Below, in pieces: positions 2,177 through 54,967 of a stretch of DNA of 64,000 nt. A program made the position numbers and the translations under genes. Source of the DNA: Dehalococcoidia bacterium (lineage in GTDB: Bacteria; Chloroflexota; Dehalococcoidia; UBA2979). Where the stretch lies: positions 1,920,001-1,984,000 of the forward strand of contig OZ253555.1 in NCBI GenBank assembly GCA_965262725.1. Direction: 5' to 3'. Within the stretch, counting starts at the first letter, position 1; each line of letters begins with the position of its first letter. The notes under the pieces are model-generated. The model saw only the letters and a list, made by a program, of their open reading frames with translations. It was not told where the DNA came from and did not search any database.

Positions 2177-2242
2177 ACGTCTCCGCCCTCCGCGGCCGGT
2201 CTGTCCTCCTCTCCGTCCGCTCGCTGTTCGTGGCCAGCCGGC

Positions 2243-3916: not shown

Positions 3917-5833
3917 TTCGCGGTAGGGATGCCGGTTGCCCGGCACCCCCCGCACAGATCCGGACGTGCCCTCTCGGGCATCCGGCTCCTACCTCAAGTG
4001 CGTGACGGCAAATCGCTCCGCAGGCCACGGGTGAAGGATGGAGATTCGGGGCCAGTGTTTCTGGCACAGGGCAAGGATGCGCTCCCACGTGAAACGGTCG
4101 CGCTGCGACCGCCGTCGGAGAACGCGCAGCCAGAGCCGCTTCACGAAACGAACAAACCGCGTGAGCGCCGGCGAGCTGGTCGGCACCGCGTAGTAGCCAA
4201 GCCACCCACGCAGTACCCGCCCCAGCCACTGCCCCGTCGTCACGGGGTTGTCGTGCATGCGCCGCCACAACTCGGCCTTGATGACCTTCAGCGTCCGGCG
4301 CATCCGCTTCGCAACGGGCTTGCGCCCCAGCCCGAATCTCCCGTCGCGTCGGGTCCGGCAGTAGTGCGTCATGCCGAGAAAGTCGAACGTTTCCGGTCGG
4401 CCCTCCCCGCGCTTCCGCCTGTTCGCCAGCGCGAACCTGCCGAACTCAAGTAGACGGGTCTTCTCCGGGTGCAGCTCCAGCCCGTAGGCCGCGAACCGCT
4501 CCCGGAGTGCCTCCATGAACCGCACCGCATCGCTGCGGTGCTGGAAACCCAGGACGAAGTCATCGGCATACCGCACGATGTACGCCTCGCCCCGGACCTC
4601 CCGCGGTCGCCACTCGCGCGCAAACCAGTCGTCGAGCACGTTGTGCAGGTACACGTTCGCAAGCAGCGGCGATATCGGCGCCCCCTGCGGCATCCCCCGC
4701 ACGAAATCGACTTCCGGCTCCGCGTCCATGACGCCGACGCTCAGCCACTTTCGTATCAGGCGCAACACCCGCTGGTCCCCGATGCGCATCTCCAGAAACG
4801 ACATCAGCCGCCCCCGGTCGATGCTGCCGAAGAACTCCCGGATGTCCACCTCGACAATCCAGCTGACCTTGCGCCGTTCGACCGCGTAGGCCAGTGCGTC
4901 CAGCGCGTCATGCGCCGAACGCCCCGGCCTGAAGCCATGCGAGAAGCCGTAGTAGCCCGACTCGTAAATCGGGTTCAAAAGATTGTCCACCACCGCCCGC
5001 TGAACGATCTTGTCCTCCAGCGAGACGATACCGAGCGGCCGTATTCCCCCGTCCGGCTTGGGTATCTCTACCCGCCTGACGGGCTTCGCCCGGTACGCTC
5101 CACGGTGTACGCGGCCATGCAGGTCGAGCAATCGCTCGTCCAGCCCGTCCCCGTATTCTCGCCACCTCACCCCGTCCACGCCCGGAGCCGCATCCCGCTT
5201 CAACGCGAGATACGCCTCCCGCAGCGCCTCCGGCGTGATGTGGTGCAAGAGCGCGGTGAGTTTCTCTCCCGGCTTCCGTTCCACGAACTGCCGTATCCTC
5301 TCCGCTCCGGGTGACACCGCACCCCGACTCTGCGTCCGGACCGTGCCGGTGCTTTGAGGATTCCTCTCGGTTGGGGCCCTTTGCTCCAGCGACTCCGCCG
5401 GGGCTCGCGCCCCCTTGTTCGCCGCCTTCATCGCTCGTACGGCCCCATCAGACTGCTGCGCATCGTTCATCATCGGCTACGGTTTACGTCCCTTCCCGAC
5501 GCGGTCCCGGCGTACGACTCGTCGGGACAACGCGCAGCTCTCCCAAGTCCCGGCGATAGACGTGTGTGCGTGCATGGGGTCTTCGACACCGTGGGGCCCG
5601 ACCACGACTCGCCAGTAGCGCCGTCGCCGGTATTGCCTTCGACCAATCCAAGAGCCTCGGCACCCCAAATGGCCCTTTCGATGCTCATTAGCCCCGCCCG
5701 CACACCCCGCTGCCGACGCTTCACAAGCCGCCTCGCGACGACCCGCGCACGGCTCGCGGAATGACATGAGTGGCTAGCTCTTTGCCATAGAGGACTTCCA
5801 CCTCCTGCCTACTCGCCAGTTAGCCTGGCGCTC
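3917..5833 (-). mobile_element. RT-encoding group IIB class E-like intron B, inserted in the IS1380 left terminal repeat
   Basis: 5' GAGCGCCAGGCTAACTGG; D5 GAGCCGGATGCCC...GGGCACGTCCGGATCT; D6 bulged A at -8, ends AA. EBS1 TGGATT pairs with IBS1 GATCCA; EBS2 AGGGC pairs with IBS2 GCCCT. Confidence 0.9.
3989..5473 (-). CDS. ltrA: Group II intron reverse transcriptase/maturase, no endonuclease domain; true start may lie downstream
   Basis: APGVDG, IPKPDGGIRPLGI, GMPQGAPISPLLANVYLH, RYADD and FDFLG motifs, followed by the X domain. Confidence 0.95.
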   Translation of the reverse strand: MMNDAQQSDGAVRAMKAANKGARAPAESLEQRAPTERNPQSTGTVRTQSRGAVSPGAERIRQFVERKPGEKLTALLHHITPEALREAYLALKRDAAPGVDGVRWREYGDGLDERLLDLHGRVHRGAYRAKPVRRVEIPKPDGGIRPLGIVSLEDKIVQRAVVDNLLNPIYESGYYGFSHGFRPGRSAHDALDALAYAVERRKVSWIVEVDIREFFGSIDRGRLMSFLEMRIGDQRVLRLIRKWLSVGVMDAEPEVDFVRGMPQGAPISPLLANVYLHNVLDDWFAREWRPREVRGEAYIVRYADDFVLGFQHRSDAVRFMEALRERFAAYGLELHPEKTRLLEFGRFALANRRKRGEGRPETFDFLGMTHYCRTRRDGRFGLGRKPVAKRMRRTLKVIKAELWRRMHDNPVTTGQWLGRVLRGWLGYYAVPTSSPALTRFVRFVKRLWLRVLRRRSQRDRFTWERILALCQKHWPRISILHPWPAERFAVTHLR

Positions 5834-5844
5834 TGGATCAGGGC
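5447..5844. repeat. 398-bp near-identical inverted repeat with 29783-30180 (IS1380 end plus intron B 5' half)
   Basis: Direct sequence comparison; the pair brackets the giant gene. Confidence 0.9.
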
Positions 5845-8800
5845 TTATTGACCTTCTCCGCTACTGCCGGGTGTCCCCTCGCCGGCACGCTCCCCGAGAG
5901 GCGGCTCGTGCTTGGCGATCAGTGGCGTAAGCGGGCGCACGCCGTCGGTGAACAGCTCGCGGAAGGGCGCATTGACGAAGGGCGGCGCCCCGAGGATGTA
6001 GGGGGTGAACTCGCTGTCGTGCAACGTGTAGAGAGCCGACACATGCTGGCTCTGCATACACGCCGCGAGTTCCCCGACGCTCCCCCCTTCATAGACGACG
6101 AGGTTGAAGCCCTCCACCATGGCGCCGTGCAAGCAGCCTGGCCAGGTCTCCGGTTCGCTGCCCGTCGGCGAGTGGATCTCGCCGGGTACGAGTCTCCCCT
6201 CTTGAGATTCGTTGCTTACGGCGACGAGTGGCGTGAGTGGGGCAAGGGCCTCGGCAAACAGCTCGCGGAACGGCTGATTCACAAACCTCGGCGCTCCCAG
6301 GATGTACGGAACGTATGCCCCATCGGCCAGGGCGTAGAGGGCCACGACCCCTCGGCTGAGCGCGCAAGCCTCCAGTTCTTCCACACTGCCGCCTGCATAG
6401 AGGACGAAGCTGAATCCGACGGCCAGTTCCCCAGACAGACAGACCGGCCGGACGCGGTAGACGGTCCTGCGGCTCCCGTCCGCCGAGATTACCGTGACTG
6501 TGATCTCGCCCTCTGGCTCGACTGCAACCTGGTGCCCATTCGCCGGGTCGGCGTCGCGGTCAGCTGGCTCTATGACGACCGTCGCGTCTTGCCGTCGAGC
6601 CTCCGCTTCGACCGTCGTCACGGTGAGGCCCGGCGTGATGAGCCCCCAGTAGTCAGTCGTGCCACGGAAGAATGCGTCGATCGACATACCGCTCAGCGAG
6701 AGTGAGGCGAGGCAGGTGTCGATGGATTTCGGCATGTCGTACCTGTAATGGCGCTCGTCCTGTGCGTCTGCGACGTACATCACGCCACAGTCCGACCAGA
6801 TGCCACGCGGGTCGCTGTTGCCCGCCCCCCGGAGCTGCGCGAAGTCCCTATCGCGGACGCGCACAAGCGCGCTCGCAGCGGGGCTACCCTGTGGGAAGGT
6901 GAGCGAGCCGGAGGCGGGGCGGTAGTCGGTCCCGGCGCGGGCGCTGCCATTGGCGGTGGTGTAGCCGACCGTGAGGTCGGCGCTGGGGATGACGCCGGTT
7001 GGTGACAGGGAGACGGGATAGGTCGCCGTAGCGCCCTCGTCCACCGAGGCGTCGCCCTCGAGGACAACGGTGATCGGATCAGAGGGCGCGATGGTGGCCG
7101 AGGCCTCGCCATTGTGCTCGTCGACGGTGACGCCGGTAGGGAGGTTGCCGCCTGCGGGGCCGAGGCTGACGGTGAGGGACTCGGCCAGCTCGGAGAGGTT
7201 GTCGTCTGCTAGGGCGAGCGTGATGGTCCGGGTGGCGCCGGCGACGGAGCCGACGGCGAAGGTCACCGGCATGGTGTTGACGACGCTGTCAGCGGACAGC
7301 ATGAACGAGCCGCTGGTGGGCCAGTAGTCGCGGCCCGCAACCGCATCTCCCGACACCGACCAGGCGACGCTCACCGCCGCCGCCACCTCAGCCGAGAGGG
7401 TGACGGTGAAGGTGACGTCGGAGCCCTCCTCGAGGTCACCTGCGGGAGCGCTGATCGCGAGCGTGGCGCGGTCGTCGTCCTCGAGGGTGATGGTGGCCTC
7501 AGTGACTGTGAGGCGGCCGCTGTGGACACCCTGCACGAGGATCGTCTCGTCACCCTCGACCACACTGTCGTCGCTGGGCGTGAGCAGGAAGCTGGTCGTG
7601 GCCGAGGGCCGGCCGGCGGCGATGGTGATGGCACCGAGGGGGGTCGCCGTGTAGTCGGCGCCGGAGCTGGCGCTGCCGCCCAGGCTGAGCCTGAGCGTGG
7701 TGTCCGTCGGCAGGGTGGCGCCTCCATGCATGGTCGCGGTCACGGTGAGGGTAGTGGCGGCGGAGCCCTCGGCGATACTGCGCTCGGAGACCGACAGGGC
7801 GATACCGCTGCGGGGTGCGTCGTCGTCGTTGATGGTGGTGGTCAACGGCGAACCGCTGACTGTCAGGGGCTCGCCCCCGCCGCCGGATGCGTCGCGGAGC
7901 TCGAGCGTGAAGGTCTCGCCGCGCTCGGCGGCGCCGTCCTCGATGGTGCTCACCTGTACGGTCTGCGCACTGCCGCCGCTCGCGGTGAAGGTGAGCGAGC
8001 CGGAGGCGGGGCGGTAGTCGGTCCCGGCGCGGGCGCTGCCATTGGCGGTGGTGTAGCCGACCGTGAGGTCGGCGCTGGGGATGACGCCGGTTGGTGACAG
8101 GGAGACGGGATAGGTCGCCGTAGCGCCCTCGTCCACCGAGGCGTCGCCCTCGAGGACAACGGTGATCGGATCAGAGGGCGCGATGGTGGCCGAGGCCTCG
8201 CCATTGTGCTCGTCGACGGTGACGCCGGTAGGGAGGTTGCCGCCTGCGGGGCCGAGGCTGACGGTGAGGGACTCGGCCAGCTCGGAGAGGTTGTCGTCTG
8301 CTAGGGCGAGCGTGATGGTCCGGGTGGCGCCGGCGACGGAGCCGACGGCGAAGGTCACCGGCATGGTGTTGACGACGCTGTCAGCGGACAGCATGAACGA
8401 GCCGCTGGTGGGCCAGTAGTCGCGGCCCGCAACCGCATCTCCCGACACCGACCAGGCGACGCTCACCGCCGCCGCCACCTCAGCCGAGAGGGTGACGGTG
8501 AAGGTGACGTCGGAGCCCTCCTCGAGGTCACCTGCGGGAGCGCTGATCGCGAGCGTGGCGCGGTCGTCGTCCTCGAGGGTGATGGTGGCCTCAGTGACTG
8601 TGAGGCGGCCGCTGTGGACACCCTGCACGAGGATCGTCTCGTCACCCTCGACCACACTGTCGTCGCTGGGCGTGAGCAGGAAGCTGGTCGTGGCCGAGGG
8701 CCGGCCGGCGGCGACGGTGATGGCACCGAGGGGGGTCGCCGTGTAGTCGGCGCCGGAGCTGGCGCTGCCGCCCAGGCTGAGCCTGAGCGTGGTGTCCGTC

Positions 8801-28305: not shown

Positions 28306-28441
28306 ATGACAACTCCGTATGGCCCCTTACCTTCTTCAAATGAGCTCAGTAACCTCTGAGCCCGGGAAGCCCAGCGCGGCCGCCAGCCATCCCGCGAGTC
28401 CGGTAGCCTCTTGGGCCAGGGCACGCATCGCGGTAACCTAA

Positions 28442-29769
28442 GGGCACTTCGAAGAATGACTATATCGTCGGCATGGTGAATGATATACTGTAGCCATCAG
28501 TGTCATGGTTACGGGGGATGATATGGGCCAACTTGGATTCTTCAATGTGGACGACCGCTACGACGCTCTCGACGCCAAGGGCGACCCACTCGCCAAGCTC
28601 GACCAAATCATCCCGTGGGAGCAGTTCAGACCTCAGTTAGAAGCCGTCTGGGCCACGCCCGAAGAAGAGCGTAAATCACCGGCCGGACGCAAGCCATGGG
28701 ACGCAATCGTCATCTTCAAGGGATTGATACTCGGCGTACTCTACAACCTCTCCGATGAACAGATTGAGTATCAGATCCGCGACCGTCTCTCCTTCTCCCG
28801 CTTCTGCGGCACAGGCATCGAAGGCCGGGTGCCCGACGCCACCACCTTCTGGCTCTACCGCGAGCAGTTGACCAGGGCGGGCGCCATCGCCGAGTTGTTC
28901 CAGGCCTTCGACCACTATCTCGCCAGCCAGGGCTACCGCGCCAGTGGCGGACAGATCGTCGACGCCTCGATCGTCTCGGTGCCGATCCAGCGCAACAGCC
29001 GCCGGGAGAACGAGTCGCTCAAGCAGGACCTCATTCCCTCGGAGTGGGTCTTCAATCCGGCGAAGCTGGCCCAGAAAGACCTCGACGCCCGCTGGACGAA
29101 GAAGCACGGGAAGAGTCACTACGGCTACAAGAACCACATCACCATCGATCGGCGCCACAAGCTGGTGCGTTCCTACGCCGTCACCGATGCCGCGGTCCAT
29201 GACAGCCAGGTGATCGACCAGCTGCTCGACTCTCCGAACACGTCACCCGATGTGTGGGCAGACCGTGCCTATCGGTCGCGGGCGATTGAGGCAATGCTCA
29301 CGGAGAAAGGTCTGACGAGCCGCATCCATCGGAAGGCCGCTGCCAACCGGCCGTTGACGGCGGCTGAGGAGGCGGTCAACCGGGGATGGTCGCAAGTACG
29401 GGCCCGGGTTGAGCACATCTTCGGCTCGCAGACGAACGAGATGGGCGGCACGCACATCCGTACGATCGGCGTGCGGCGGGCAGTGACGCAGATCGGCTTC
29501 AAGAACCTGGCGTACAATATTCGCCGTCTGGCGCACCTCGAACACCGCCGTACGGCTGCCGCGGCCTAGCTTGCCGCCACCCGTCCACAGACCTCACACC
29601 AGCCTCTAGTTCGGTGCTTTGACAGTCCCGTTTAACTGTCAATTATCCCGCTTCACCTATGCTCTCGCGGACTCACCCACACCCCCTGGGGTCTCCTCAG
29701 CTACGCCCTCTGCCCCCTCGTGCCCTCACCGATACCTTCATCAAAAATCGCGAGTTCTTCGAGGTGCCC
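28442..29769 (+). mobile_element. IS5-family element, copy 1
   Basis: TIR GGGCACTTCGAAGAA/TTCTTCGAGGTGCCC; CTAA target duplication (28438-28441, 29770-29773). Confidence 0.9.
28505..29569 (+). CDS. IS5-family DDE transposase
   Basis: GDPLAKLDQIIPWEQFR, QIVDASIV, YGYKNH, WADRAY and VRARVEHIFG motifs. Confidence 0.95.
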   Translation: MVTGDDMGQLGFFNVDDRYDALDAKGDPLAKLDQIIPWEQFRPQLEAVWATPEEERKSPAGRKPWDAIVIFKGLILGVLYNLSDEQIEYQIRDRLSFSRFCGTGIEGRVPDATTFWLYREQLTRAGAIAELFQAFDHYLASQGYRASGGQIVDASIVSVPIQRNSRRENESLKQDLIPSEWVFNPAKLAQKDLDARWTKKHGKSHYGYKNHITIDRRHKLVRSYAVTDAAVHDSQVIDQLLDSPNTSPDVWADRAYRSRAIEAMLTEKGLTSRIHRKAAANRPLTAAEEAVNRGWSQVRARVEHIFGSQTNEMGGTHIRTIGVRRAVTQIGFKNLAYNIRRLAHLEHRRTAAAA

Positions 29770-29793
29770 CTAACGTGCCTTAGCCCTGATCCA

Positions 29794-30180
29794 GAGCGCC
29801 AGGCTAACTGGCGAGTAGGCAGGAGGTGGAAGTCCTCTATGGCAAAGAGCTAGCCACTCATGTCATTCCGCGAGCCGTGCGCGGGTCGTCGCGAGGCGGC
29901 TTGTGAAGCGTCGGCAGCGGGGTGTGCGGGCGGGGCTAATGAGCATCGAAAGGGCCATTTGGGGTGCCGAGGCTCTTGGATTGGTCGAAGGCAATACCGG
30001 CGACGGCGCTACTGGCGAGTCGTGGTCGGGCCCCACGGTGTCGAAGACCCCATGCACGCACACACGTCTATCGCCGGGACTTGGGAGAGCTGCGCGTTGT
30101 CCCGACGAGTCGTACGCCGGGACCGCGTCGGGAAGGGACGTAAACCGTAGCCGATGATGCACGATGCGCAGCAGTCTGAT
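29794..30180 (+). pseudogene. 5' fragment (D1-D2) of intron B behind an orphan IS1380 left end (29783-29793)
   Basis: Near-identical to 5833-5447; cut off at J2/3 by the right end of IS1380 copy 2. Confidence 0.85.
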
Positions 30181-30402: not shown

Positions 30403-31728
30403 TCAGGCCGGGAGCGGTATCGCCCGTAGTCGCGCGAGCGCGGCTGCCAGCTGCTCTGCCCAGGGCCAGCGCTTCGGGAGGTGCAGAGTCCACCGCCGGG
30501 CAGAGCGGGTGAGCCGTCCGGCGAGAGAGAAGTAGCGTCGCCTGAGCGTCCTGGTCGTCACGATCCCCTCGCCGAGCCCGAGGCGTGCCGTCCAGCGGGC
30601 GAGGTTGTGCGCGATCACCTGCACCGCGAGCCACGCCGCGTTCGCGGCGAAGCGGCCCGAGGGGAGATGGTTCAACCCGACGCCGTACTTGAGGTCGCGG
30701 ATCGCGTTCTCGATCTCGGCGTGACGGCGATGGTCGGCCTCCAGCTCCATCATCTCCCCCGCGCGATCGGTGATGAAGGCATGGTAACTGTAGTTCACGA
30801 AGAGTGCGAGCTGTGAGCCGGGCGTCGGCTTGACGCGCCGCACGATGAGCCGCACCGCGGTGGCGTCCCTCGTGTGCTGGAACGGCGTGTAGGTCGTCTC
30901 GGCGACAGCGGCGCCGTCGTCCTGCCAGTACGGGATCGGCGTCCAGTCCTCTTCCGGTATCGCCTCGATCAGCCGGCGTACGTTCGGCTGCTGGCGAATG
31001 GTGATGGAAAAGCGGACATCCTGCTTGCGACAGACGGCGACGACAGCGTGGTTGTAGAAGCCGCTGTCGGCGCGCACCGTGAGCTGCCCGCTCGCCCCGG
31101 CGTCGCGCACCCGCGCCACCGTCTCACGGAGAAAGTGTGCGGCCCCCCGAGCGGTGTTGGCACGGCCCCCGCGCAGCCGGGCCATCAGCACCTCACCCGT
31201 CCCGGCCGCCACCGCGAGCAGCGGGTGATAGCCGCGCACGCCCGTGTAGCCGTGGTGCCGGGCGCCCTCCTTCGCCAGGCCGTAGGTCTCGCAGAGCGTC
31301 GAGTCGAGGTCGATGGTGAACGGCGCCGCGCCGGGTCCCGCCCCGGCCGCCCAACTGCGGGCCAGCAACTCGCGGCTGACGCGGTCGAGCTGACGGACGT
31401 GGCCCCAGCGAAAGCTGCGCAGGAAGGTCCCGAGGGTGGACGGCGCCTTCACGGTGCAGCCGAGCACGCGCCCGGTGCCGCCTGAGCGCATGGCATCGGC
31501 GTCATCGATGCAGTCGCCGCCCGCGAGCGCCGAGGCGATGAGAGTCATCAGCTTGTCGCCGACGTTCGCCCGCCCCGCTGCGTCACCGAGGTCGAGGTGG
31601 GCGTCTGCCAGTTCACGGAGGCCGAGCCGGCCAGCGAGCGTGGCCGGGAGCAGCAGGCCCGCGTGGTCCACGAGGCGGTCGTCGTCGAAGGCGATGTGTA
31701 TCCGGTCGGGGCTGCTCGTTGCTAGCAT
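30403..31728 (-). CDS. IS1380-family DDE transposase (441 aa)
   Basis: TIDLDST, GYHPL, VRADSGFY and HRRHAEIENAIRDLKYG motifs. Confidence 0.92.
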   Translation of the reverse strand: MLATSSPDRIHIAFDDDRLVDHAGLLLPATLAGRLGLRELADAHLDLGDAAGRANVGDKLMTLIASALAGGDCIDDADAMRSGGTGRVLGCTVKAPSTLGTFLRSFRWGHVRQLDRVSRELLARSWAAGAGPGAAPFTIDLDSTLCETYGLAKEGARHHGYTGVRGYHPLLAVAAGTGEVLMARLRGGRANTARGAAHFLRETVARVRDAGASGQLTVRADSGFYNHAVVAVCRKQDVRFSITIRQQPNVRRLIEAIPEEDWTPIPYWQDDGAAVAETTYTPFQHTRDATAVRLIVRRVKPTPGSQLALFVNYSYHAFITDRAGEMMELEADHRRHAEIENAIRDLKYGVGLNHLPSGRFAANAAWLAVQVIAHNLARWTARLGLGEGIVTTRTLRRRYFSLAGRLTRSARRWTLHLPKRWPWAEQLAAALARLRAIPLPA

Positions 31729-32030
31729 CGAATGGGGTGCGCCAGGCTAACTGGTGCTTGGGCAGGAGGTGCAAGTCCTCTACGGCGAAGGAGCAAGCCA
31801 CTCCACGCGGTTCCGCGAGCCGTGCGCGACTCGTCGCGAGGCGAGCCGTGAAGCGTCGGCAGCGGGGTAGGCGGGCGGAGCTATTGAGCATCGAAAGATG
31901 CATAATCCGGAGTGCCGAGGCTTTCCCATTGGTCGAAGGCAACACCGGCGACGGCGCTTCTGGCGAGCCGTCGTCGGGCTCTGCGGTGTCAAAGAACTCA
32001 CGCACGTCTGCACGTCCAGCACCGGGACCT

Positions 32031-34123
32031 CATATGGATGCCTCGGTTGTCAAGCCCCGTCCAGCGGTACTTGAACGTCCGGTCTGCTGCGGCGGCGGTC
32101 GCGCGAGGATGACGACTCCGGGGTGGCGAAGGAGGGATGAGCGGGAATTGTTCGACGTCTTGTCACTCTCATATTCGCGGGTTGCCAGTGGCAGAGCCGC
32201 ATGACCCTTCTTCGTCAGGAGCAGGCGCATTCTGATATCGCGGGTTGGCGACGCGAAGCGTCGTTGCCGCATGGTTCCGTCGCGCAGTCTCCGAAACGTA
32301 GTCCCGCTTATCCGTCCTTCACCGCCCCCGGAGTCGAGGTCCCCGCCCTCCGCGGCCAGCTCCGCTGCATGCTCCTCACTCGCGGCGATGCCTGAGAGCC
32401 CCTGCTCCGTCGGGCGGATGTGCTCATCCGTCATCTCGACCCTCTGCAGGTAGCTGCCGAAGGCCGCCTGGGCGCCCTTCTCCTGGAAGGAGAGGAAGCG
32501 CGGACAGCGCCGGCGCTCGTGCGCCCAGCAGGACTTCCCATAATGGTGCCGCGCGAGCAGCGAGCACCCCGCCGACGGCTGCTGCGCCGTCTTGCGCGGC
32601 CGCGCGAAGATGACGACTCCGGGGTGGCGAAGGAGGGATGAGCGGGAATCACTCGACGTTGTGTCACTCTCATAGTCGCGGGTTGCCAGTGGCAGAGCCG
32701 CATGACCTTTCTTCGTCGGGAGGGGGCGCCGTCTGGGAACGCGGGTTGGCGACGCTTCGCGTCGTTGCCGCATGGTCCCGTCGCGCGATCTCCAGAATGT
32801 GGTCCCGTTCATCCGTCCTTCACCGCCCCCGGAGTCGACGTCTCCGCCCTCCGCGGCCGGTCTGTCCTCCTCTCCGTCCGCTCCCTGTTCGTGGCCAGCC
32901 GGCTCAGGCGGCCTGCTGCCGCTCTTCAGCGTGGGTGCGCAGCACCGCCCAGATGGCGGCGAGCAGCTCCCGCGCCACGGCCACGACGGCGACCTGCGAC
33001 GGCTTGCCTCGCTCCTTGAGATGCCGGTAGCGCCGGGACATCCGGGAACCGGTCTTGTCGGCCATCGCGACCGCCCAGCCCGGCTGGCCCTCCCGCCGTC
33101 TGCGCAGCGGCGCCCCGACGCGGTACGGGCGGATGCTGTGCCAGCCCGCCTCGACCAGCACGCGCCGGACGTGCTCGTTCCCCGTCTTGGTGATGCCGCC
33201 GCGCCGCGTCCTCGGGCCTGAGCTGTGCTCGCTCGCCACCAGCCCCACGTACGCTGCCAGCTGGTCGGGGCTTCCGAATCGCGTGATATCGCCGAGCTCG
33301 CCCAGGATCGTCATGGCGGTGACCGTGTCGATGCCGCGGAAGCAGCGGAGGAGTCCCGCCTCCGGCGCATACTCCTCACTCGCGACGATGTCTGAGAGCC
33401 TCTGCTCCATCAGGCGGATGTGTTCATCCGCCATCTCCACGCGCTGCAGGTAGCCGTCGAATGCCGCCTGGTCGCCCAGCTCCTCGAAGGAGAGCGAGCG
33501 CAGCCAGCACCGGTGCTCTCGGGTCCACGTAGACTTACCATAATGGTGGCCCGAGCGCAGCAGGAACCCCGACAGTTGCATCTGGGCCGTCTTGCGGGCC
33601 GCAACGGCGTCCTCGCGCCCACGGGTGAGGTTGCGCACAGATTCCTGCCGCTCAGTCGGCTGGTGCACCTCGGTGAGCAGTCCCGCGCGCAAGAGATGCG
33701 CCAGGTTCCGCGCGTCGCGGCGGTCCGTCTTGACGCGGTCTCCCGGCTTTGTGGGGATCAGCGCCGGCGCGATGACGCGGCAGTCGATCCCCTTCGCATC
33801 GAGAGTGCGCTTCAGCCCGAACCCGGTCGGGCCCGCCTCGTAGCAACAGACCACGGAATCCCCGGCCTCGCGGCGCAGTCGCCGCGCCAGCGCCGCCACG
33901 GACTTCGGCTCGTTGGCGAGCTGCCACTCTTCGGGCTTCTTCTCCCCGTGCAGAACGGAGACGTTGATCGTCCGCGCGTGCACGTCGAGGCCCACGTATA
34001 GCTTCGTCTGGTCCATCTGGTCTGCCCCCTACCCCTTCCATGTTCCGGTCCGGTTCCGCTCCGATGTTGCACTCGGAACAGAAACCGACACCGGTTCTCA
34101 AGGTGTCGAGGCATCCATAGGGT
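32031..34123 (-). mobile_element. IS110-A copy 2 (2093 bp); bridge RNA units at 32614-32837 and 32113-32336
   Basis: Same sub-terminal IRs; CT cores at 32029-32030 and 34124-34125. Confidence 0.9.
32904..34016 (-). CDS. IS110-family recombinase
   Basis: Identical protein to 36612..37724; 3 aa differ from copy 1. Confidence 0.95.
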   Translation of the reverse strand: MDQTKLYVGLDVHARTINVSVLHGEKKPEEWQLANEPKSVAALARRLRREAGDSVVCCYEAGPTGFGLKRTLDAKGIDCRVIAPALIPTKPGDRVKTDRRDARNLAHLLRAGLLTEVHQPTERQESVRNLTRGREDAVAARKTAQMQLSGFLLRSGHHYGKSTWTREHRCWLRSLSFEELGDQAAFDGYLQRVEMADEHIRLMEQRLSDIVASEEYAPEAGLLRCFRGIDTVTAMTILGELGDITRFGSPDQLAAYVGLVASEHSSGPRTRRGGITKTGNEHVRRVLVEAGWHSIRPYRVGAPLRRRREGQPGWAVAMADKTGSRMSRRYRHLKERGKPSQVAVVAVARELLAAIWAVLRTHAEERQQAA

Positions 34124-34904
34124 CTGGGAGGGCTCGGCCTTGTCCCTGCGTGTTGCCACGCCGGGACCGCAACGGAAAGGGCGATTCCGTAATCCGTTGA
34201 CGCACGAGGTCGAGCAATCAGATCCGGCCATAGTAGTGATGAGGGCGGCGAACAAAGAGGAGTAGACACCCTCGGCGGAGTCGACGGAGCGAAGGGCCGG
34301 ACCGGAGGGGAAGCTGGCGAAGCCCGGCACTGGCGGGACACTGCGCCCGCGTTTGGTGTCACTCGGGCTACCCGGCTACGGCACCTCTTGGGTGCCGTCT
34401 GACCTGACGGAGGAGCCGTATGCGTTAACGCGCACGTACGGATCTGTCCGGGGGGCGGCCGGCAACGGCCGTCCCTACCGGAATTGCTCCCTGTGGCTGT
34501 GACGTGATTCGTTGAAAAACCATTGTCCCAGCTACAGCGGAGCACCCAACACCAGCCGCTCGCGCACTCTTCGTTCGGTTTCCGGTAGGGACGCCGGTTA
34601 CCCGGCGCCCCCCGGACAGATCCGTACGTGCGCGCTAGCGCATACGGCTCCTCTCCCGGGTATGACGGTCGGGGCTGAAACGCACCCTGCCGTATCGGCT
34701 CGGACTTCTTGTGCCACAGGTCACCCGGCTCAGTGTCCGGCCCATGTCGAGTCCTCGCAGATTCCCCGCGAGTCCGGCCCTTGGCTCCTCCGACTCCGCA
34801 GAGGCTCGCGCCCCCTTCTATGAGGGTCGTCTGATCCGCAAGGCCGACGTGGCGGCCTTCTGCGCCGTTCTACCGATCGCGCCTCCCGTCCGCAGCCCTG
34901 TGGT

Positions 34905-35105
34905 GGTTGTCGGTGCCGATGCGAGTGGTGCCGCCGTCTTGTCCCCGGGACGTTGTGGTGACCGTGCTTCTATTCGCACTCGTCGAGGGGCCGCTCCGGG
35001 CCCGGTGCATGATGATCAGCCTGTCTCCAGGGTGTGGGCGCTGCCATCTTGTTCCCGTCCTCGTTGGGACCAGGGGGTTCCGCAGTCGCCCGCGTGTCGG
35101 CATCT
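34905..35105 (-). ncRNA. Predicted bridge RNA of IS110-B (ends approximate)
   Basis: Target guides CCCCCT (35072-35077) and GAACAAG (35048-35054) match site CCCC-CT-TGTTC. Donor guides TCATC (35011-35015) and ATAGAAG (34967-34973) match circle junction TCAT-CT-TCTAT. Confidence 0.8.
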
Positions 35106-35163
35106 CTCGTATCCTCCGAAGCCCACCGGCCGCCCGGTCGCCTCGCTCCTCGCGTGCTGTCTG

Positions 35164-36255
35164 CTACGCCGCCTCGGCCGCGCGCGCGTGGCGCAACGGC
35201 TCGTAGACCTCCCCGCTCTTCCAGAGCGCAAGCATCAGCACCGCCAGTCGCCTCGCGACCGCGACGACGGCACGCTTCTTCGCATTGCCGGCCCCCGACT
35301 CCGCGTAACGCAGCCCCCACCTGCGGAGGTCGCTGTCGGGGCCGAAGGGGCCCAGGATGTAGTGCGCGGCCTGGTTCAGCACCCGGCGCAGCGCCACGTC
35401 CCCTTCCTTCGTGATCCGCAGCTGGGGCTGCCGATCACCGGAATCGCGGCTCCGGGGCACCAGCCCCAGGTAGGGCCCCACCTCCCTGTTCTTGGGGAAG
35501 CGGGCCGGGTCCTCGATGGTGAGGATGAAGGTGAGCGAGGTGATCGGGCCGACGCCCACGATCTGCCGCAGCGCGCCGGTCTCCGCGTAGCGCTCGCACA
35601 TCGCGGCGAACTTCTTGTCGGCCTGGCGGATCTCCCCGGTCAGCTGCTCGATCTGGTGGAGCACCGGCAGCAGCGCCGGGCCCAGCTCCTCGGGGATGTG
35701 CTCTCTGACCGCGCGGTGGAAGGCCGGCGCCGTGCAGCCCGGAAGCGCCGCGCCCCACGCCTTCACCGCGCCCCGGACGTGGTTGATGAACATCGTGCGC
35801 GCCCGGACCAGCGCCTCGCGGCTGCGGAGCACCTGGAGGTCCGCCTGCGCCATGGCGCTTCGGTGCCGGATGGGGAAGAGGAGCGCCGGGTCGAATCGGC
35901 CGAGCCGTGCGAGGTGCTCGGCATCGGAGCGGTCGGTCTTGCGCTGGCTGCGCGCGATCAGCCTGACCTGCCTCGGGTTGGCGACGATCACGTCGTGACC
36001 GAGCTCCGCGAACATCCGGCTCAGCCACGGGGACCGCGGCCCCACCTCCATCACCACCCGGGCGCCCTGCAGTGGGGTGAGCGCCCGCGTGAGCGCCGCG
36101 GTCGTGGTGCGGACTCGCTCCTCCCGCACGATCTCCCCGTCGCCACCGAGGACGCAGAGGTGGCTGTAGCGGTCGCTGACGTCGATGCCGACAGTCACGA
36201 GCTCCGCATCCCCCACCTTCCTGCTCTCTGTGACATCTGATGTACGCTGTGCCAC
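35164..36255 (-). CDS. IS110-family recombinase B (GTG start after AGGAG)
   Basis: TVGIDVS, VVMEVG, KTDRSDA, LVPRSRDSG and ITKEGD motifs. Confidence 0.92.
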   Translation of the reverse strand: MAQRTSDVTESRKVGDAELVTVGIDVSDRYSHLCVLGGDGEIVREERVRTTTAALTRALTPLQGARVVMEVGPRSPWLSRMFAELGHDVIVANPRQVRLIARSQRKTDRSDAEHLARLGRFDPALLFPIRHRSAMAQADLQVLRSREALVRARTMFINHVRGAVKAWGAALPGCTAPAFHRAVREHIPEELGPALLPVLHQIEQLTGEIRQADKKFAAMCERYAETGALRQIVGVGPITSLTFILTIEDPARFPKNREVGPYLGLVPRSRDSGDRQPQLRITKEGDVALRRVLNQAAHYILGPFGPDSDLRRWGLRYAESGAGNAKKRAVVAVARRLAVLMLALWKSGEVYEPLRHARAAEAA

Positions 36256-36611
36256 GGTCGGTCTCCTACCTCTCTCGGCTCGCCTGAGCCGTTCTCCTGG
36301 GCCACCACGTGAGCCCGTGCTTGGAGGGGAAGTATCCCCTCTGAGGAGGGGACCGACCCTCATGTCATCTTGTTCGCCGGTCTCACAGCTACTATGGCCG
36401 AATCAGATTGCTTCACGGCGTACATCAGCGGCGTACGGCTTCTACCTTCCCGCTGCGGCCCCCCCGACAGGAACTGTCACAGGGGCACCGTGGAGCCCTC
36501 CCAGACCCTATGGATGCCTCGACACCTTGAGAACCGGTGTCGGTTTCTGTTCCGAGTGCAACATCGGAGCGGAACCGGACCGGAACATGGAAGGGGTAGG
36601 GGGCAGACCAG

Positions 36612-37724
36612 ATGGACCAGACGAAGCTATACGTGGGCCTCGACGTGCACGCGCGGACGATCAACGTCTCCGTTCTGCACGGGGAGAAGAAGCCCGAAGA
36701 GTGGCAGCTCGCCAACGAGCCGAAGTCCGTGGCGGCGCTGGCGCGGCGACTGCGCCGCGAGGCCGGGGATTCCGTGGTCTGTTGCTACGAGGCGGGCCCG
36801 ACCGGGTTCGGGCTGAAGCGCACTCTCGATGCGAAGGGGATCGACTGCCGCGTCATCGCGCCGGCGCTGATCCCCACAAAGCCGGGAGACCGCGTCAAGA
36901 CGGACCGCCGCGACGCGCGGAACCTGGCGCATCTCTTGCGCGCGGGACTGCTCACCGAGGTGCACCAGCCGACTGAGCGGCAGGAATCTGTGCGCAACCT
37001 CACCCGTGGGCGCGAGGACGCCGTTGCGGCCCGCAAGACGGCCCAGATGCAACTGTCGGGGTTCCTGCTGCGCTCGGGCCACCATTATGGTAAGTCTACG
37101 TGGACCCGAGAGCACCGGTGCTGGCTGCGCTCGCTCTCCTTCGAGGAGCTGGGCGACCAGGCGGCATTCGACGGCTACCTGCAGCGCGTGGAGATGGCGG
37201 ATGAACACATCCGCCTGATGGAGCAGAGGCTCTCAGACATCGTCGCGAGTGAGGAGTATGCGCCGGAGGCGGGACTCCTCCGCTGCTTCCGCGGCATCGA
37301 CACGGTCACCGCCATGACGATCCTGGGCGAGCTCGGCGATATCACGCGATTCGGAAGCCCCGACCAGCTGGCAGCGTACGTGGGGCTGGTGGCGAGCGAG
37401 CACAGCTCAGGCCCGAGGACGCGGCGCGGCGGCATCACCAAGACGGGGAACGAGCACGTCCGGCGCGTGCTGGTCGAGGCGGGCTGGCACAGCATCCGCC
37501 CGTACCGCGTCGGGGCGCCGCTGCGCAGACGGCGGGAGGGCCAGCCGGGCTGGGCGGTCGCGATGGCCGACAAGACCGGTTCCCGGATGTCCCGGCGCTA
37601 CCGGCATCTCAAGGAGCGAGGCAAGCCGTCGCAGGTCGCCGTCGTGGCCGTGGCGCGGGAGCTGCTCGCCGCCATCTGGGCGGTGCTGCGCACCCACGCT
37701 GAAGAGCGGCAGCAGGCCGCCTGA
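36612..37724 (+). CDS. IS110-family recombinase
   Basis: Same DEDD and SEHSSG motifs as copies 1 and 2. Confidence 0.95.
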   Translation: MDQTKLYVGLDVHARTINVSVLHGEKKPEEWQLANEPKSVAALARRLRREAGDSVVCCYEAGPTGFGLKRTLDAKGIDCRVIAPALIPTKPGDRVKTDRRDARNLAHLLRAGLLTEVHQPTERQESVRNLTRGREDAVAARKTAQMQLSGFLLRSGHHYGKSTWTREHRCWLRSLSFEELGDQAAFDGYLQRVEMADEHIRLMEQRLSDIVASEEYAPEAGLLRCFRGIDTVTAMTILGELGDITRFGSPDQLAAYVGLVASEHSSGPRTRRGGITKTGNEHVRRVLVEAGWHSIRPYRVGAPLRRRREGQPGWAVAMADKTGSRMSRRYRHLKERGKPSQVAVVAVARELLAAIWAVLRTHAEERQQAA

Positions 37725-37790
37725 GCCGGCTGGCCACGAACAGGGAGCGGACGGAGAGGAGGACAGACCGGCCGCGGAGGGCGGAGACGT

Positions 37791-38014
37791 CGACTCCGGG
37801 GGCGGTGAAGGACGGATGAACGGGACCACATTCTGGAGATCGCGCGACGGGACCATGCGGCAACGACGCGAAGCGTCGCCAACCCGCGTTCCCAGACGGC
37901 GCCCCCTCCCGACGAAGAAAGGTCATGCGGCTCTGCCACTGGCAACCCGCGACTATGAGAGTGACACAACGTCGAGTGATTCCCGCTCATCCCTCCTTCG
38001 CCACCCCGGAGTCG
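37791..38014 (+). ncRNA. Predicted bridge RNA unit 1 (target GGGAC-CT-GGGAR)
   Basis: Long closing stem CGACTCCGGGG...CCCCGGAGTCG. Target guides GGGACC (37849-37854) and TTCCCAG (37889-37895); donor guides GGTC (37921-37924) and TATGAG (37954-37959). Confidence 0.85.
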
Positions 38015-38029
38015 TCATCTTCGCGCGGC

Positions 38030-38275
38030 CGCGCAAGACGGCGCAGCAGCCGTCGGCGGGGTGCTCGCTGCTCGCGCGGCACCATTATGGGAAGTCCTGC
38101 TGGGCGCACGAGCGCCGGCGCTGTCCGCGCTTCCTCTCCTTCCAGGAGAAGGGCGCCCAGGCGGCCTTCGGCAGCTACCTGCAGAGGGTCGAGATGACGG
38201 ATGAGCACATCCGCCCGACGGAGCAGGGGCTCTCAGGCATCGCCGCGAGTGAGGAGCATGCAGCGGAGCTGGCCG
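38030..38275 (+). pseudogene. Degenerate internal fragment of an IS110-A-like recombinase gene between the two bridge RNAs
   Basis: RKTAQ...HHYGKS...AAFGSYLQRVEMTDEHIR resembles RKTAQ...HHYGKS...AAFDGYLQRVEMADEHIR in the intact gene. Confidence 0.8.
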
Positions 38276-38291
38276 CGGAGGGCGGGGACCT

Positions 38292-38515
38292 CGACTCCGG
38301 GGGCGGTGAAGGACGGATAAGCGGGACTACGTTTCGGAGACTGCGCGACGGAACCATGCGGCAACGACGCTTCGCGTCGCCAACCCGCGATATCAGAATG
38401 CGCCTGCTCCTGACGAAGAAGGGTCATGCGGCTCTGCCACTGGCAACCCGCGAATATGAGAGTGACAAGACGTCGAACAATTCCCGCTCATCCCTCCTTC
38501 GCCACCCCGGAGTCG
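38292..38515 (+). ncRNA. Predicted bridge RNA unit 2 (target GGAAC-CT-GATAT)
   Basis: Same scaffold 501 nt downstream. Target guides GGAACC (38350-38355) and ATATCAG (38390-38396); donor guides GGGTC (38421-38425) and ATATGAG (38454-38460). Confidence 0.8.
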
Positions 38516-38899
38516 TCATCCTCGCGCGACCGCCGCCGCAGCAGACCGGACGTTCAAGTACCGCTGGACGGGGCTTGACAACCGAGGCATCCATATGAGG
38601 TCCCGGCGATAGACGTGTGCGCGTGCATGGGGTTCTTCGACACCGTGGGGCCCGACCACGACTCGCCAATAGCGCCGTCGCCGGTATTGCCTTCGACCAA
38701 TCCAAAAGCCTCGACACCCCAAATGGCCCTTTCGATGCTCATTAGCCCCGCCCGCACACCCCGCTGCCGACGCTTCACAAGCCGCCTCGCGACGACCCGC
38801 GCACGGCTCGCGGAATGACATGAGTGGCTAACTCTTTGCCATAGAGGACTTCCACCTCCTGCCTACTCGCCAGTTAGCCTGGCGCTCTGGATCAGGGCT

Positions 38900-39097
38900 A
38901 TGCGTATCCTCGACGCCTTCATCGAGGCCGTCCCTGTGTTCAGCGACGACCTGGAGGAGATGTTTCGGGCAGAGGAGCCGCTGCGAGAGCAGGCCTTACA
39001 GACTCTTCGTCGGGCGGCCCGCTACGTTCAGGAGGTGGACGACCAACTCAGCGCCGCGGGACGCCCCCGGCCTCCAGTATGGAACCACCCGGTCTGA
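38900..39097 (+). pseudogene. Probable C-terminal gene fragment cut by IS1380
   Basis: Protein-like reading frame that starts right at the IS end. Confidence 0.4.
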
Positions 39098-39279
39098 GTC
39101 GGCAAACGAAGCGACTGGTGCGAAACGCGGCCTGCCCGATTGCCGCCGTGTCGATCGAGCTGGCAGAAGCGGCTGATCAGGCGCGACCGGGGCGAGCGCA
39201 ATCGAGCGGCGATTGCGGGCCTAGTCAGCCCGATCGTAGCCCGGGCCTGTAGAATGGGGTGGCGCGGGAGCGAGTCAAC

Positions 39280-39870
39280 ATGACGACGACCACCGAGGCG
39301 AAGCTGCTGACCGTCGGCGACCTGCTACGGCTCGACGCCGAGGGCGTGCGCGGCGAACTGATCCGGGGGGTGCTCTGCGAGACCATGCCAGCGGGACAAC
39401 GACACGGGAAGATTGTGGCAAGGCTTGTGGCTGCGTTGGTCAACTTCGCTGAGGCAGGGAGACTGGGCACGGTCGTCGCATCCGACTCGGGGGTCTGGCT
39501 GGAGCACGATCCCGACACGGTGCGCGAGCCGGACATCGCGTTCACATCAGTCGAGCGGCTGCCGCTCGACGAGGATGTCGCAGGGTACGCTGAGGTGGTC
39601 CCCGACCTTGTCGTGGAGATCGCCTCACCGAGCGACAGTCGCCGCGAGGTGCACGACAAGGCGCGGATGTGGCTCAGCCACGGCGTGCGCCTTGTCTGGG
39701 CCGTCCACCCGGAGGCGCGCGCAGTGGATGTGCATCGACCTGACGGCGATGTGGAGACGCTCGGCGAGCCGGATGCCCTCGACGGGCTGGACGTGCTGCC
39801 GGGCTTCACCTGCGACGTAAGCGCAGTCTTCGGTGGGCCAGCGGCAGGAGCTGTGCGGCAAGACGGCTGA
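39280..39870 (+). CDS. Uma2/DUF820 family PD-(D/E)XK endonuclease
   Basis: GELIRG, VREPDIAF, VPDLVVEIASPSD and K..WL.HGVRLVW motifs. Confidence 0.9.
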   Translation: MTTTTEAKLLTVGDLLRLDAEGVRGELIRGVLCETMPAGQRHGKIVARLVAALVNFAEAGRLGTVVASDSGVWLEHDPDTVREPDIAFTSVERLPLDEDVAGYAEVVPDLVVEIASPSDSRREVHDKARMWLSHGVRLVWAVHPEARAVDVHRPDGDVETLGEPDALDGLDVLPGFTCDVSAVFGGPAAGAVRQDG

Positions 39871-41096: not shown

Positions 41097-41510
41097 ATGC
41101 CTAGATCCGGCGGCGAGGCTGACAAGCTGGGGAACCGATACGAGGGCTTGTGGGCAGTTCATGCTGCACTGGACCTCATCGACGGCGAACACGTCGACCT
41201 GACAATCGAAGCGATCGGGGACGAAGCCGCCGGGGTCGAGTTCGTTCGGACGAACCGCTCAGGTGCCCCCGAGTACCACTCCATCAAGCGCCAACAAGGG
41301 AAGGGCAACTGGACACTCAGCCGTCTCGCTGAGGAGGGGCCGACGGGGAGGAGCATCCTCGGCGACCTCATCGCGAAGGTCGACAGTGGGGGTGAAGCGG
41401 TCTTCAGCTCCGGCACTAGCGTAAGCGAACTCGAGAGACTGATTGACCAATCTCGCGCGACTGAGTCTTTCGACGAATTCGGTGCGCGCATCGAGCAAAA
41501 CGCCATGCGT
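41097..41510 (+). pseudogene. N-terminal Cap4-like nuclease domain of a large defence-type protein, truncated
   Basis: GGEADKLGNRYEGLW...GVEF...EYHSIKRQ resembles N-terminal PD-(D/E)XK effector domains of STAND/Avs-like proteins. Confidence 0.6.
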
Positions 41511-41956
41511 TCCGGGCAGGTTGTGAGTACGGAGTGGACGTAGACCTCGAAGACCGTGCGGATCAGCGGATTGTCGAGTCGGATGAACTCCACGTCCCAC
41601 GAGGCAACCGTCGCCTTGGCTTGGTTGAAGTAGCGAGCAACCTGCGGGTCGGCCTGCAGTTCCGCTCGCGTGCGGCCCTCGACGACGACGCGACGCTTCC
41701 TTGCTCGCTCGACGGCCATCGAGAAGGCAAGGGTCGCGGAGTGGTGCGTGCTGCTTGGGCGTGTGTGTTGCGCGAGGCGGTTGCGCAAGTTGCGAGTCTG
41801 TCCGACATATCGATAGCGTTCGCCGTCGCTGAACAGGTAAACCCCCGGGACAGCGGGTACCTTGCCCGGCGTAGGCGGTGATTGCGGAGCGTCCAGCAAC
41901 GGACGCATCTTCGACCAGATGCGCTCCCCGCTTTGCCAGGATGGCTCAACGTCCAA
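41511..41956 (-). pseudogene. GIY-YIG nuclease, 3' end lost
   Basis: PGVYLF...YRYVGQTRNLRNRLAQH; the frame then runs into the antisense of the Cap4-like fragment. Confidence 0.7.
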
Positions 41957-53620: not shown

Positions 53621-53639
53621 CGCTGTTGCGATCGCTCTA

Positions 53640-54967
53640 GGGCACTTCGAAGAATGACTATATCGTCGGCATGGTGAATGATATACTGTAGCCATCAGTG
53701 TCATGGTTACGGGGGATGATATGGGCCAACTTGGATTCTTCAATGTGGACGACCGCTACGACGCTCTCGACGCCAAGGGCGACCCACTCGCCAAGCTCGA
53801 CCAAATCATCCCGTGGGAGCAGTTCAGACCTCAGTTAGAAGCCGTCTGGGCCACGCCCGAAGAAGAGCGTAAATCACCGGCCGGACGCAAGCCATGGGAC
53901 GCAATCGTCATCTTCAAGGGATTGATACTCGGCGTACTCTACAACCTCTCCGATGAACAGATTGAGTATCAGATCCGCGACCGTCTCTCCTTCTCCCGCT
54001 TCTGCGGCACAGGCATCGAAGGCCGGGTGCCCGACGCCACCACCTTCTGGCTCTACCGCGAGCAGTTGACCAGGGCGGGCGCCATCGCCGAGTTGTTCCA
54101 GGCCTTCGACCACTATCTCGCCAGCCAGGGCTACCGCGCCAGTGGCGGACAGATCGTCGACGCCTCGATCGTCTCGGTGCCGATCCAGCGCAACAGCCGC
54201 CGGGAGAACGAGTCGCTCAAGCAGGACCTCATTCCCTCGGAGTGGGTCTTCAATCCGGCGAAGCTGGCCCAGAAAGACCTCGACGCCCGCTGGACGAAGA
54301 AGCACGGGAAGAGTCACTACGGCTACAAGAACCACATCACCATCGATCGGCGCCACAAGCTGGTGCGTTCCTACGCCGTCACCGATGCCGCGGTCCATGA
54401 CAGCCAGGTGATCGACCAGCTGCTCGACTCTCCGAACACGTCACCCGATGTGTGGGCAGACCGTGCCTATCGGTCGCGGGCGATTGAGGCAATGCTCACG
54501 GAGAAAGGTCTGACGAGCCGCATCCATCGGAAGGCCGCTGCCAACCGGCCGTTGACGGCGGCTGAGGAGGCGGTCAACCGGGGATGGTCGCAAGTACGGG
54601 CCCGGGTTGAGCACATCTTCGGCTCGCAGACGAACGAGATGGGCGGCACGCACATCCGTACGATCGGCGTGCGGCGGGCAGTGACGCAGATCGGCTTCAA
54701 GAACCTGGCGTACAATATTCGCCGTCTGGCGCACCTCGAACACCGCCGTACGGCTGCCGCGGCCTAGCTTGCCGCCACCCGTCCACAGACCTCACACCAG
54801 CCTCTAGTTCGGTGCTTTGACAGTCCCGTTTAACTGTCAATTATCCCGCTTCACCTATGCTCTCGCGGACTCACCCACACCCCCTGGGGTCTCCTCAGCT
54901 ACGCCCTCTGCCCCCTCGTGCCCTCACCGATACCTTCATCAACAATCGCGAGTTCTTCGAGGTGCCC
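53640..54967 (+). mobile_element. IS5-family element, copy 2 (transposase 53703..54767)
   Basis: Near-identical to 28442-29769; no matching target duplication. Confidence 0.9.

Follow-up and report, generated by a model that had tools for sequence, protein, structure and literature searches.

Why should one group II intron carry two different insertion sequences (IS), each seated in a conserved part of the ribozyme? The question is raised by a 64,000-nucleotide (nt) stretch of a Dehalococcoidia bacterium genome (Chloroflexota; GCA_965262725.1, contig OZ253555.1), which is referred to here as the window and which covers positions 1,920,001-1,984,000 of the 3.67-Mb single-contig genome at 70.6% G+C. 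Within it an intron without an open reading frame (ORF), intron C, is cut into three pieces by two elements, IS110-A and IS110-B (Table 1). The explanation that we favour, at a probability of roughly 85%, is that such elements enter intron DNA by guide-RNA-directed recombination of the IS1111 type and that for IS110-B the introns, renewed by their own retrohoming, are the sole target in the genome. The evidence in hand consists of the element boundaries, the identity of the sites, the match between guide and target, the co-variation of guides and flanks among relatives, and an exact empty site.

On sequence grounds, both elements belong to the IS1111 group of the IS110 family. All four transposase ORFs combine PF01548 and PF02371, that is, an N-terminal DEDD RuvC-like domain and a C-terminal Tnp domain, and both transposases exceed the cut-off of the model NF033542 ('IS110 family RNA-guided transposase'). 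The two proteins share 29% identity and therefore represent two lineages, in agreement with a sequence-only reading of the window that had described two distinct IS110 elements in the intron. Subterminal inverted repeats, given as 7-17 bp for the IS1111 group (PMC11208160), are present in IS110-A (13 bp; 36509-36521 and 38583-38595) and in IS110-B (10 bp; 36354-36363 and 34820-34829), together with a 3' non-coding region holding a predicted two-loop RNA whose loops covary. Each element has the same dinucleotide at both junctions, AG in element orientation and CT on the other strand, with no other duplication; the cores lie at 36503-36504 and 38598-38599 for IS110-A and, on the minus strand, at 36369-36370 and 34815-34816 for IS110-B. 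The circle junctions predicted by the earlier reading agree with the element ends mapped here.

Both sites can be placed in the architecture of the ribozyme. The intron C match to RF02005 spans 38631-38852 (170 bits), and the 5' end of the intron was set by comparison of 19 intron copies. The IS110-A site lies about 30 nt past the end of the RF02005 match, and five of its bases pair with intron nucleotides 6-10; two of these pairs vary on both sides or via G-U among five intron types. Since the pairing changes in step, the site is assigned to the closing helix of domain 1 (D1), with the core dinucleotide inside the helix. In the consensus fold of the five types a branched D2 comes next and after it a helix, marked by compensatory changes, around the IS110-B site, so that this site belongs to the third domain, upstream of the D4 region where the ORF begins. 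These five sequences and their predicted folds support a location of IS110-A in the 3' strand of the D1 closing helix and of IS110-B inside D3, as had been proposed for both. The notion that the IS110-B site falls inside the reverse transcriptase (RT) gene (frame from 5473) was considered and ruled out: the RT model begins at residue 82, and ORF-less introns retain the site.

The non-coding region of about 350 nt that lies 3' of the IS110-B transposase gene contains short segments resembling both the target and the element's own ends. Positions 34962-35104 and ten homologues share a consensus fold of 29 pairs with two stem-enclosed internal loops, in which the stems are invariant and the loops hypervariable. 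In the predicted target loop, 35072-35077 is complementary to the top strand across the right target half and core (6 nt) and 35048-35054 repeats the left target half and core (7 nt). In the donor loop, 34967-34973 repeats the right end and core (7 nt) and 35011-35015 is the complement of the left end, a single core base being included in the pairing. The top-strand match lies 5' of the bottom-strand match. The earlier statement that all four segments match exactly is true only for short stretches because the segments are 5-7 nt long: it stands for those of 6, 7 and 7 nt, while the left end is matched over 5 nt only. The guide-RNA regions have no Rfam match, and an E-value search of 34300-39000 returned intron models only.

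Within the genome, the four full copies of IS110-B all occupy one intron position, in three B-type introns and in intron C. Genome-wide, the 15-nt target occurs in ten exact empty and four filled instances, with one further instance carrying one mismatch; all of them lie in introns and none elsewhere, and the empty targets are always 152-153 nt past an RF02005 match. One is in intron B at 5408-5422, where an empty site had been noticed at 5410-5420. Of the 14 exact targets, four are filled. The proposal that the introns serve as multicopy landing sites for RNA-guided insertion is well supported.

An uninterrupted form is found in public sequencing data. All 24 runs were available as Logan contigs; those of four (X1, X5, X6 and X19) were compared, and in three of these runs (X1, X5 and X19, from three studies, but not X6) contigs join 34814 to 36369, skipping 1554 bases that correspond to IS110-B plus one copy of the core. 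X19 is an RNA library, although the contig that shows the empty form in it may stem from DNA; neither stretches lacking cover nor the small shares of the RNA runs X19 and X20 carry weight as evidence. The same contigs continue from 36504 into D1 of another intron type, with 33 other letters followed by a diverged match. As assembled, they show that related populations contain the intron without interruption, and they confirm the IS110-B boundaries; a site never filled and a site from which the element was excised are alike compatible with them.

Further evidence for guidance by RNA comes from relatives whose guides have changed together with their surroundings. One of them, IS110-B2, is 92-96% identical and lies in unrelated sequence of the same genome; it is degenerate and interrupted by an IS21-family element. 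Its two target-loop segments and right-end segment differ exactly where its own flanks and ends require. Relatives with 70-94% DNA identity to IS110-B occur in many different sequences across five metagenome-assembled genomes (MAGs), and again the loops follow the flanks. When ten guides were scored against ten flanks, the cognate pair was the unique best in 10 of 10 rows, with a cognate mean of 10.9 against a non-cognate mean of 3.7 and maximum of 7. The right flanks of four distinct IS110-A relatives likewise match their own loops over 7-8 nt. Near-identical recombinases with loops rewritten for at least ten targets are a natural guide-swap series.

Some relatives show additional arrangements. 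On two metagenome contigs (L055:1984-3536 and L057:2349 onward) an IS110-B relative lies inside the guide-RNA gene of a sister copy, between its loops, and the guide loops of the inserted element match that sister-IS site. Among the relatives of about 70% identity, three (L013, L015 and L017) have the last 49 nt or so of the right end tandemly repeated two to five times, and L015 also repeats the entire guide-RNA region.

Introns are targeted in other genomes as well, albeit by a minority of relatives. A protein search with IS110-B (E<=1e-60) in 400 other genomes of the same phylum gave no match beyond the window's own genome; relatives were taken from a scan of genome contigs, and the closest protein relatives are Dehalococcoidia MAGs. 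The IS110-B D3 junction is also filled in a second MAG (L021/L079), and empty D3 sites are present in three others (L076, L078 and L081). In MAG G404 a 90% relative (L012, at about 2333-3885 of its locus) sits at approximately intron nucleotide 11 with guides written for the first 20 nt; it thus occupies the D1 helix hit by IS110-A, but in the 5' strand. At another locus (L011, about 2334) the junction between IS and intron lies one base inside the left end of the IS and is formed by an intact intron 5' end, which looks like an insertion of the intron into the IS; no 3' end of this intron was found within the locus. Scanning the flanks of homologous copies for introns, as the sequence-only reading had recommended, placed RF02005 near 4 of 20 genome loci (L026 and L027 lay outside the scan), the remaining genome loci giving none, and near 0 of 16 metagenome loci, a result that says little because many of these contigs are short. 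Three of about 20 guide sets are aimed at introns, which make up about 1% of the genome, an enrichment that is not significant without the two index elements.

IS110-A differs in having two guide-RNA modules. The region 3' of its transposase gene is about 870 nt long (37725-38597) and contains module 1, a fragment of a second transposase gene and module 2 in that order, the second module being 88% identical to the first. The 11 sequences of the IS110-A family region are predicted to fold, as in IS110-B, into two stem-enclosed loops (consensus fold, 28 pairs). The module 1 target loop fits every insertion observed, four in this genome and nine in MAG G403, and the module 1 donor loop has one mismatch to the left end and one or two to the right end. 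Module 2 has a donor loop that fits both ends exactly and a target loop that specifies a different 13-nt site, which occurs once in the genome (position 2411044) and is empty. The right ends of single-module relatives terminate in letters equal to the 3' segment of the module 2 target loop, which suggests that a tandem insertion and a later deletion gave rise to the composite. It is mobile as a unit: eight copies in G403 are identical, as are two in the present genome. Separate target and donor loops are functional in the IS621 system in vitro (PMC11208158), so the two modules may divide the work, module 1 supplying the target loop and module 2 the donor loop.

The genome has four copies of IS110-A, three in the window and one outside, all at the same intron site. 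Its occurrence three times at one 3'-D1 motif, already noticed in the sequence-only reading, is upheld by the same dinucleotide and motif at the three window copies. Occupancy goes with the core: four of the five introns with CT are filled and none of the 14 with TT.

Taken together, these observations can be accommodated in a single mechanism. Each element would make a structured non-coding RNA with two internal loops, one of which would pair with both strands of the target around the two-base core and the other with the junction formed when the excised element closes into a circle. Strand exchange at the core by the DEDD recombinase would follow, so that each side of the element keeps a single core copy and nothing else is duplicated. 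For IS110-B the target loop would be written for 13-15 nt of D3-encoding DNA of the 19-copy intron family; the target loop active in IS110-A would be written for a shorter motif, of which the 3' strand of the D1 closing helix is a part. The introns would thus act as a multicopy landing site renewed by their own retrohoming. The guide RNAs are presumed to be expressed and the circles to form, and once 1.5-2 kb has been inserted into D3 or the D1 closing helix, splicing would be expected to stop until precise excision; the known roles of these domains make such a block likely.

Several findings weigh against this explanation. The D5/D6 model RF00029 scores intron C at 36 bits over 34580-34652 (E 1.5e-4) and intron A' at 39.3 bits (E 2.4e-5; 4.7 kb searched), slightly below the Rfam cut-off of 40. 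Compensatory changes are seen in 2 of 29 pairs of the IS110-B RNA and 2 of 28 of the IS110-A RNA, so that structural covariation is thin because the helices are nearly invariant. The left-end donor segment of IS110-B is short, and the relative L006 is mismatched there. The guides of an internally deleted relative in MAG G404 (L025) do not fit its flanks; they are of the intron 5'-end type, its flanks equal those of an element in another MAG (L008), and it is probably a recombinant. The contigs cannot show RNA starts, depth or levels, or rare or circle junctions. Intron C is a mosaic in which the 5' 290 nt or so are 98% identical to the B-type and the remainder is of another type, and because the type changes exactly at the IS110-A junction, recombination between copies could have made the arrangement. 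(An origin of intron C by inversion between two inverted identical IS110-A copies was ruled out, as intron A and the fourth copy are arranged like A' without it.) Three of the four IS110-A copies (those in introns A and A' and the fourth copy) lie in a duplicated block with flanks shared over hundreds of bases, and these three need not be independent insertions. Finally, in MAG G403, whose element encodes a protein 98% identical to that of IS110-A and has the same guide letters, eight identical copies and one partial copy are present, of which one lies beside an intron and eight lie outside introns; their flanks share only about 9-11 nt, pointing to loose specificity. The earlier expectation that homologous copies would lie mostly in introns therefore fails in part for IS110-A and is not contradicted for IS110-B.

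The last three of these points are what would be expected if the association of IS110-A with introns were incidental, a view that we rate at a little under even odds. A short motif (two or three bases, the core and about five bases) would happen to occur in some D1 closing helices, and one or two insertions would then have been copied by duplication or recombination; the three A-type copies share, besides their flanks, the same IS1380-family gene and a convergent intron alongside. Set against this, none of about 40 non-intron 9-mer sites in the source genome is filled, nor is either of two further exact 12-mer sites (one of them in an intron), while the introns with a CT core are mostly occupied. 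Moreover, the sequence 3' of IS110-A differs between introns C and A' beyond about 10 nt, which requires at least two backgrounds.

A more general form of copying would make both elements passengers: after a single insertion the loaded intron or block would have multiplied, and the shared site would say nothing about targeting. The three A-type copies of IS110-A fit such a history, and the IS110-B copies at 3.31 Mb and 3.51 Mb are identical to one another. We nonetheless regard this history as improbable, since the three B-type introns that bear IS110-B have distinct 5' exons and distinct single-nucleotide haplotypes (11 variable columns), each being closest to a different empty copy, so that the filled copies are not one clade. 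Because the haplotypes of the filled introns differ, the insertions are taken to be independent rather than spread by a loaded intron. Besides these three introns, IS110-B occupies intron C, which has no ORF, and it is seen at the identical junction in a second MAG; nor does copying have to be invoked for guides and flanks that covary among relatives.

It might also be supposed that the arrangement is functional, the introns being reversibly silenced by RNA-guided insertion, or IS110-B, lying in the sense direction, using intron transcription. Precise excision is a known property of the family, 7 of the 19 introns carry an IS110-type insertion, and IS110-B is in intron orientation in all four copies; this orientation is not evidence, because an asymmetric guide fixes it. 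We consider such a role very unlikely, given that relatives with other guides lie in ordinary sequence and nine of the 19 introns are uninterrupted. The suggestion in the sequence-only reading that the elements might exert RNA-guided control of retroelements found no support: no host gene, regulator or conserved synteny was found around them, and nothing points to a host-directed control system. That the target is chosen by the protein or by DNA structure (hairpin-rich intron DNA) with no RNA guide is hardly credible, for although both intron sites lie in helix-encoding DNA and a preprint on ISPpu10 is said to describe a structural layer of recognition, near-identical proteins (87-94% DNA identity) are found in unrelated sequences that match their own loops in every one of ten cases.

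Guide-RNA-directed recombination into intron DNA is thus the explanation retained, and the introns on which it depends can be described more fully. The window layout, derived from Rfam, self-comparison, Pfam and NCBIfam, is given in Table 1.

Table 1. Introns, insertion sequences and predicted guide-RNA regions in the window
Feature	Position	Strand	Remarks
Intron A	1199-3850	+	ORF-less, A-type; 3' end approximate
IS110-A copy in intron A	1493-3462	-	119-bp internal deletion
Intron B	3906-5845	-	Full-length, with RT/maturase ORF; IS110-A site unoccupied, core TT, not CT
Empty IS110-B target in intron B	5408-5422	-	
Truncated B-type intron, 5' piece	29782-30180		
Intron A'	31737-34490	+	ORF-less, A-type; 3' end approximate; start 10 nt from IS1380-family transposase gene
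IS110-A copy in intron A'	32031-34123	-	
Intron C	34578-38887	-	ORF-less; about 655 nt of ribozyme without both insertion sequences; cut into three pieces
Intron C, piece 3	34578-34814	-	3' half of D3, ORF-less D4 stub, D5, D6
IS110-B	34817-36368	-	1552 bp; same orientation as intron
IS110-B predicted bridge/seek RNA gene	34962-35104	-	Two-loop fold
IS110-B transposase	35164-36198	-	344 aa from in-frame GTG at 36198; PF01548 and PF02371; NF033542 216 bits (cut-off 140)
Intron C, piece 2	36371-36502	-	D2 and 5' half of D3; joined to piece 3 in metagenome contigs
IS110-A in intron C	36505-38597	+	2093 bp; antisense to intron; 100% identical to the copy at 32031-34123
IS110-A transposase	36612-37724	+	370 aa; PF01548 and PF02371; NF033542 235 bits (cut-off 140)
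IS110-A guide-RNA module 1	37834-37966	+	Approximate bounds; target-loop segments 37848-37854 and 37890-37895 match the intron site
Fragment of second transposase gene in IS110-A	38025-38268	+	244 bp; about 80% identical
IS110-A guide-RNA module 2	38335-38467	+	Approximate bounds; donor-loop segments 38420-38425 and 38454-38461; target loop about 38349-38355 and 38390-38396
Intron C, piece 1	38600-38887	-	5' end to 3' strand of D1 closing helix; 98% identical to B-type

The Rfam covariance model RF02005 has five matches in the window (163-170 bits, cut-off 49) and 19 in the genome. The maturase ORF of intron B scores 326 bits with TIGR04416 (cut-off 300) and also matches RVT_1, as expected of a domain 4 RT/maturase; introns A, A' and C are regarded as ORF-less derivatives because this ORF is missing. 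Seven of the 19 genome introns carry an IS110-type element, two carry an IS5-family element, one is truncated and nine are uninterrupted. About 12 near-identical B-type introns lie at loci with 5' exons that are different but for a short common motif, and this multicopy occurrence at varied loci is the only sign, an indirect one, that the intron family may splice itself and retrohome. The B-type introns (window 5845 and 38887 and 12 more genome copies) start with GAGCG, not the usual GUGYG; the A-type introns start with GUGCG. The short motif common to the 5' exons ends in CCA.

Other mobile elements accompany these introns, IS1380-family and IS5-family elements surrounding the introns and IS110 copies in the window. 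An arrangement of an IS1380-family gene, an A-type intron with IS110-A and a convergent B- or C-type intron occurs three times (window 493-3990, window 31009-34652 and genome 2020544-2029237); the convergent introns have common 3' flanks and different 5' exons. An IS5-family element (DDE_Tnp_1 and DUF772), present in the window at 28441-29769 and 53639-54967, splits two B-type introns in the RT region, within about 25 nt of one common position (genome 1522773-1524988 and 1876116-1877443), and between another IS5-family copy and the truncated intron at 29782 there are 12 nt. IS21-family elements (IstA/IstB) are present in the fourth IS110-A copy (genome 2020976-2025008) and in IS110-B2 (1708743-1711348).

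Elsewhere in the window, a 7300-codon open frame with Calx-beta, cadherin and fibronectin-type domains (5848-27747, minus strand), resembling a giant adhesin, ends exactly at the start of intron B, and the long frames on the opposite strand of this region have no Pfam match. The window also holds one match to RF02003 (43106-43242, plus strand, 103 bits), near which lie an ORF with a GIY-YIG domain (41159-41956, minus strand) and a Uma2-family ORF (39259-39870, plus strand).

A literature search confined to open journals without their supplements returned no report of IS110 or IS1111 insertion into group II introns. The mechanism is known and the target class is new: group II introns join repetitive extragenic palindromic (REP) sequences, transposon ends and attC, which is a known target of the IS110 family. 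IS4321 and IS5075 reportedly target the ends of Tn21-family transposons. An IS1111-type element with a fixed target inside another mobile element resembles the present case in that its prey is itself mobile and offers many safe sites; there, the prey is the end of a DNA transposon with one site, whereas here a retroelement ribozyme is hit at three intron sites by related elements. Repeats also serve as landing sites for the REP-targeting ISPa11, ISPpu9 and ISPpu10, for which 100% of copies are reported with one repeat family (PMC1525189); REPs are short host repeats, whereas the sites described here would be made by an autonomous mobile retroelement through retrohoming.

In their anatomy the present elements are closest to what has been described of the IS1111-type seekRNA elements ISEc11, ISPa11 and ISKpn4, with which they share the subterminal repeats and the long non-coding region 3' of the transposase gene (PMC11187229). 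The transposase of about 340 aa with a GL-P----SG motif described for those elements is shared by IS110-B, in which short segments also match both target strands in the same order, top strand first; as here, each close lineage has its own target (PMC11187229). The differences from that description are that the target is ribozyme-domain DNA of a group II intron, in this case known from sequence alone, and that IS110-A is longer, with a 370-aa protein and two RNA modules. The bridge RNA element IS621 likewise has a two-loop RNA, a two-base core and a DEDD recombinase with a Tnp domain; its guide is reprogrammable, and a bridge RNA has been predicted in the right end of IS1111 members (PMC11208160; PMC11208158). 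Unlike the elements described here, IS621 as reported there carries the RNA in its left end, lacks long subterminal repeats and has a REP-like target, while IS110-A and IS110-B have the core AG in element orientation and RNA structures that are predicted. Intron targets could be contained in the ISfinder-wide target logos of PMC11187229 or in Supplementary Table 5 of PMC11208160.

IS110 and IS1111 elements are the natural source of bridge recombinases, which are programmable genome-writing tools, and yet their natural targets and the speed with which guides are rewritten are poorly charted. The locus provides a clean natural series of guide rewrites in which flanks are available to check each one, and IS110-A may show in nature what PMC11208158 describes for IS621, so far only in vitro, namely target and donor loops supplied on separate RNAs. 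Two IS110 lineages have guides for three places in the intron (D3 and the 3' strand of the D1 helix, and, in the 90% relative, its 5' strand), and one guide is aimed at the guide-RNA gene of a sister IS. It is conceivable, though we think it rather unlikely, that IS110 elements of this lineage specialise on other mobile elements by guide rewriting. The intron is a self-renewing target because a retroelement multiplies its own copies, and it becomes testable whether DNA transposons limit the spread of introns. If the association reflects selection and not chance, group II introns and IS110 elements would stand in a predator-prey relation, in which insertion switches the intron off, precise excision switches it on again, and retrohoming of the intron keeps supplying the IS with new sites.

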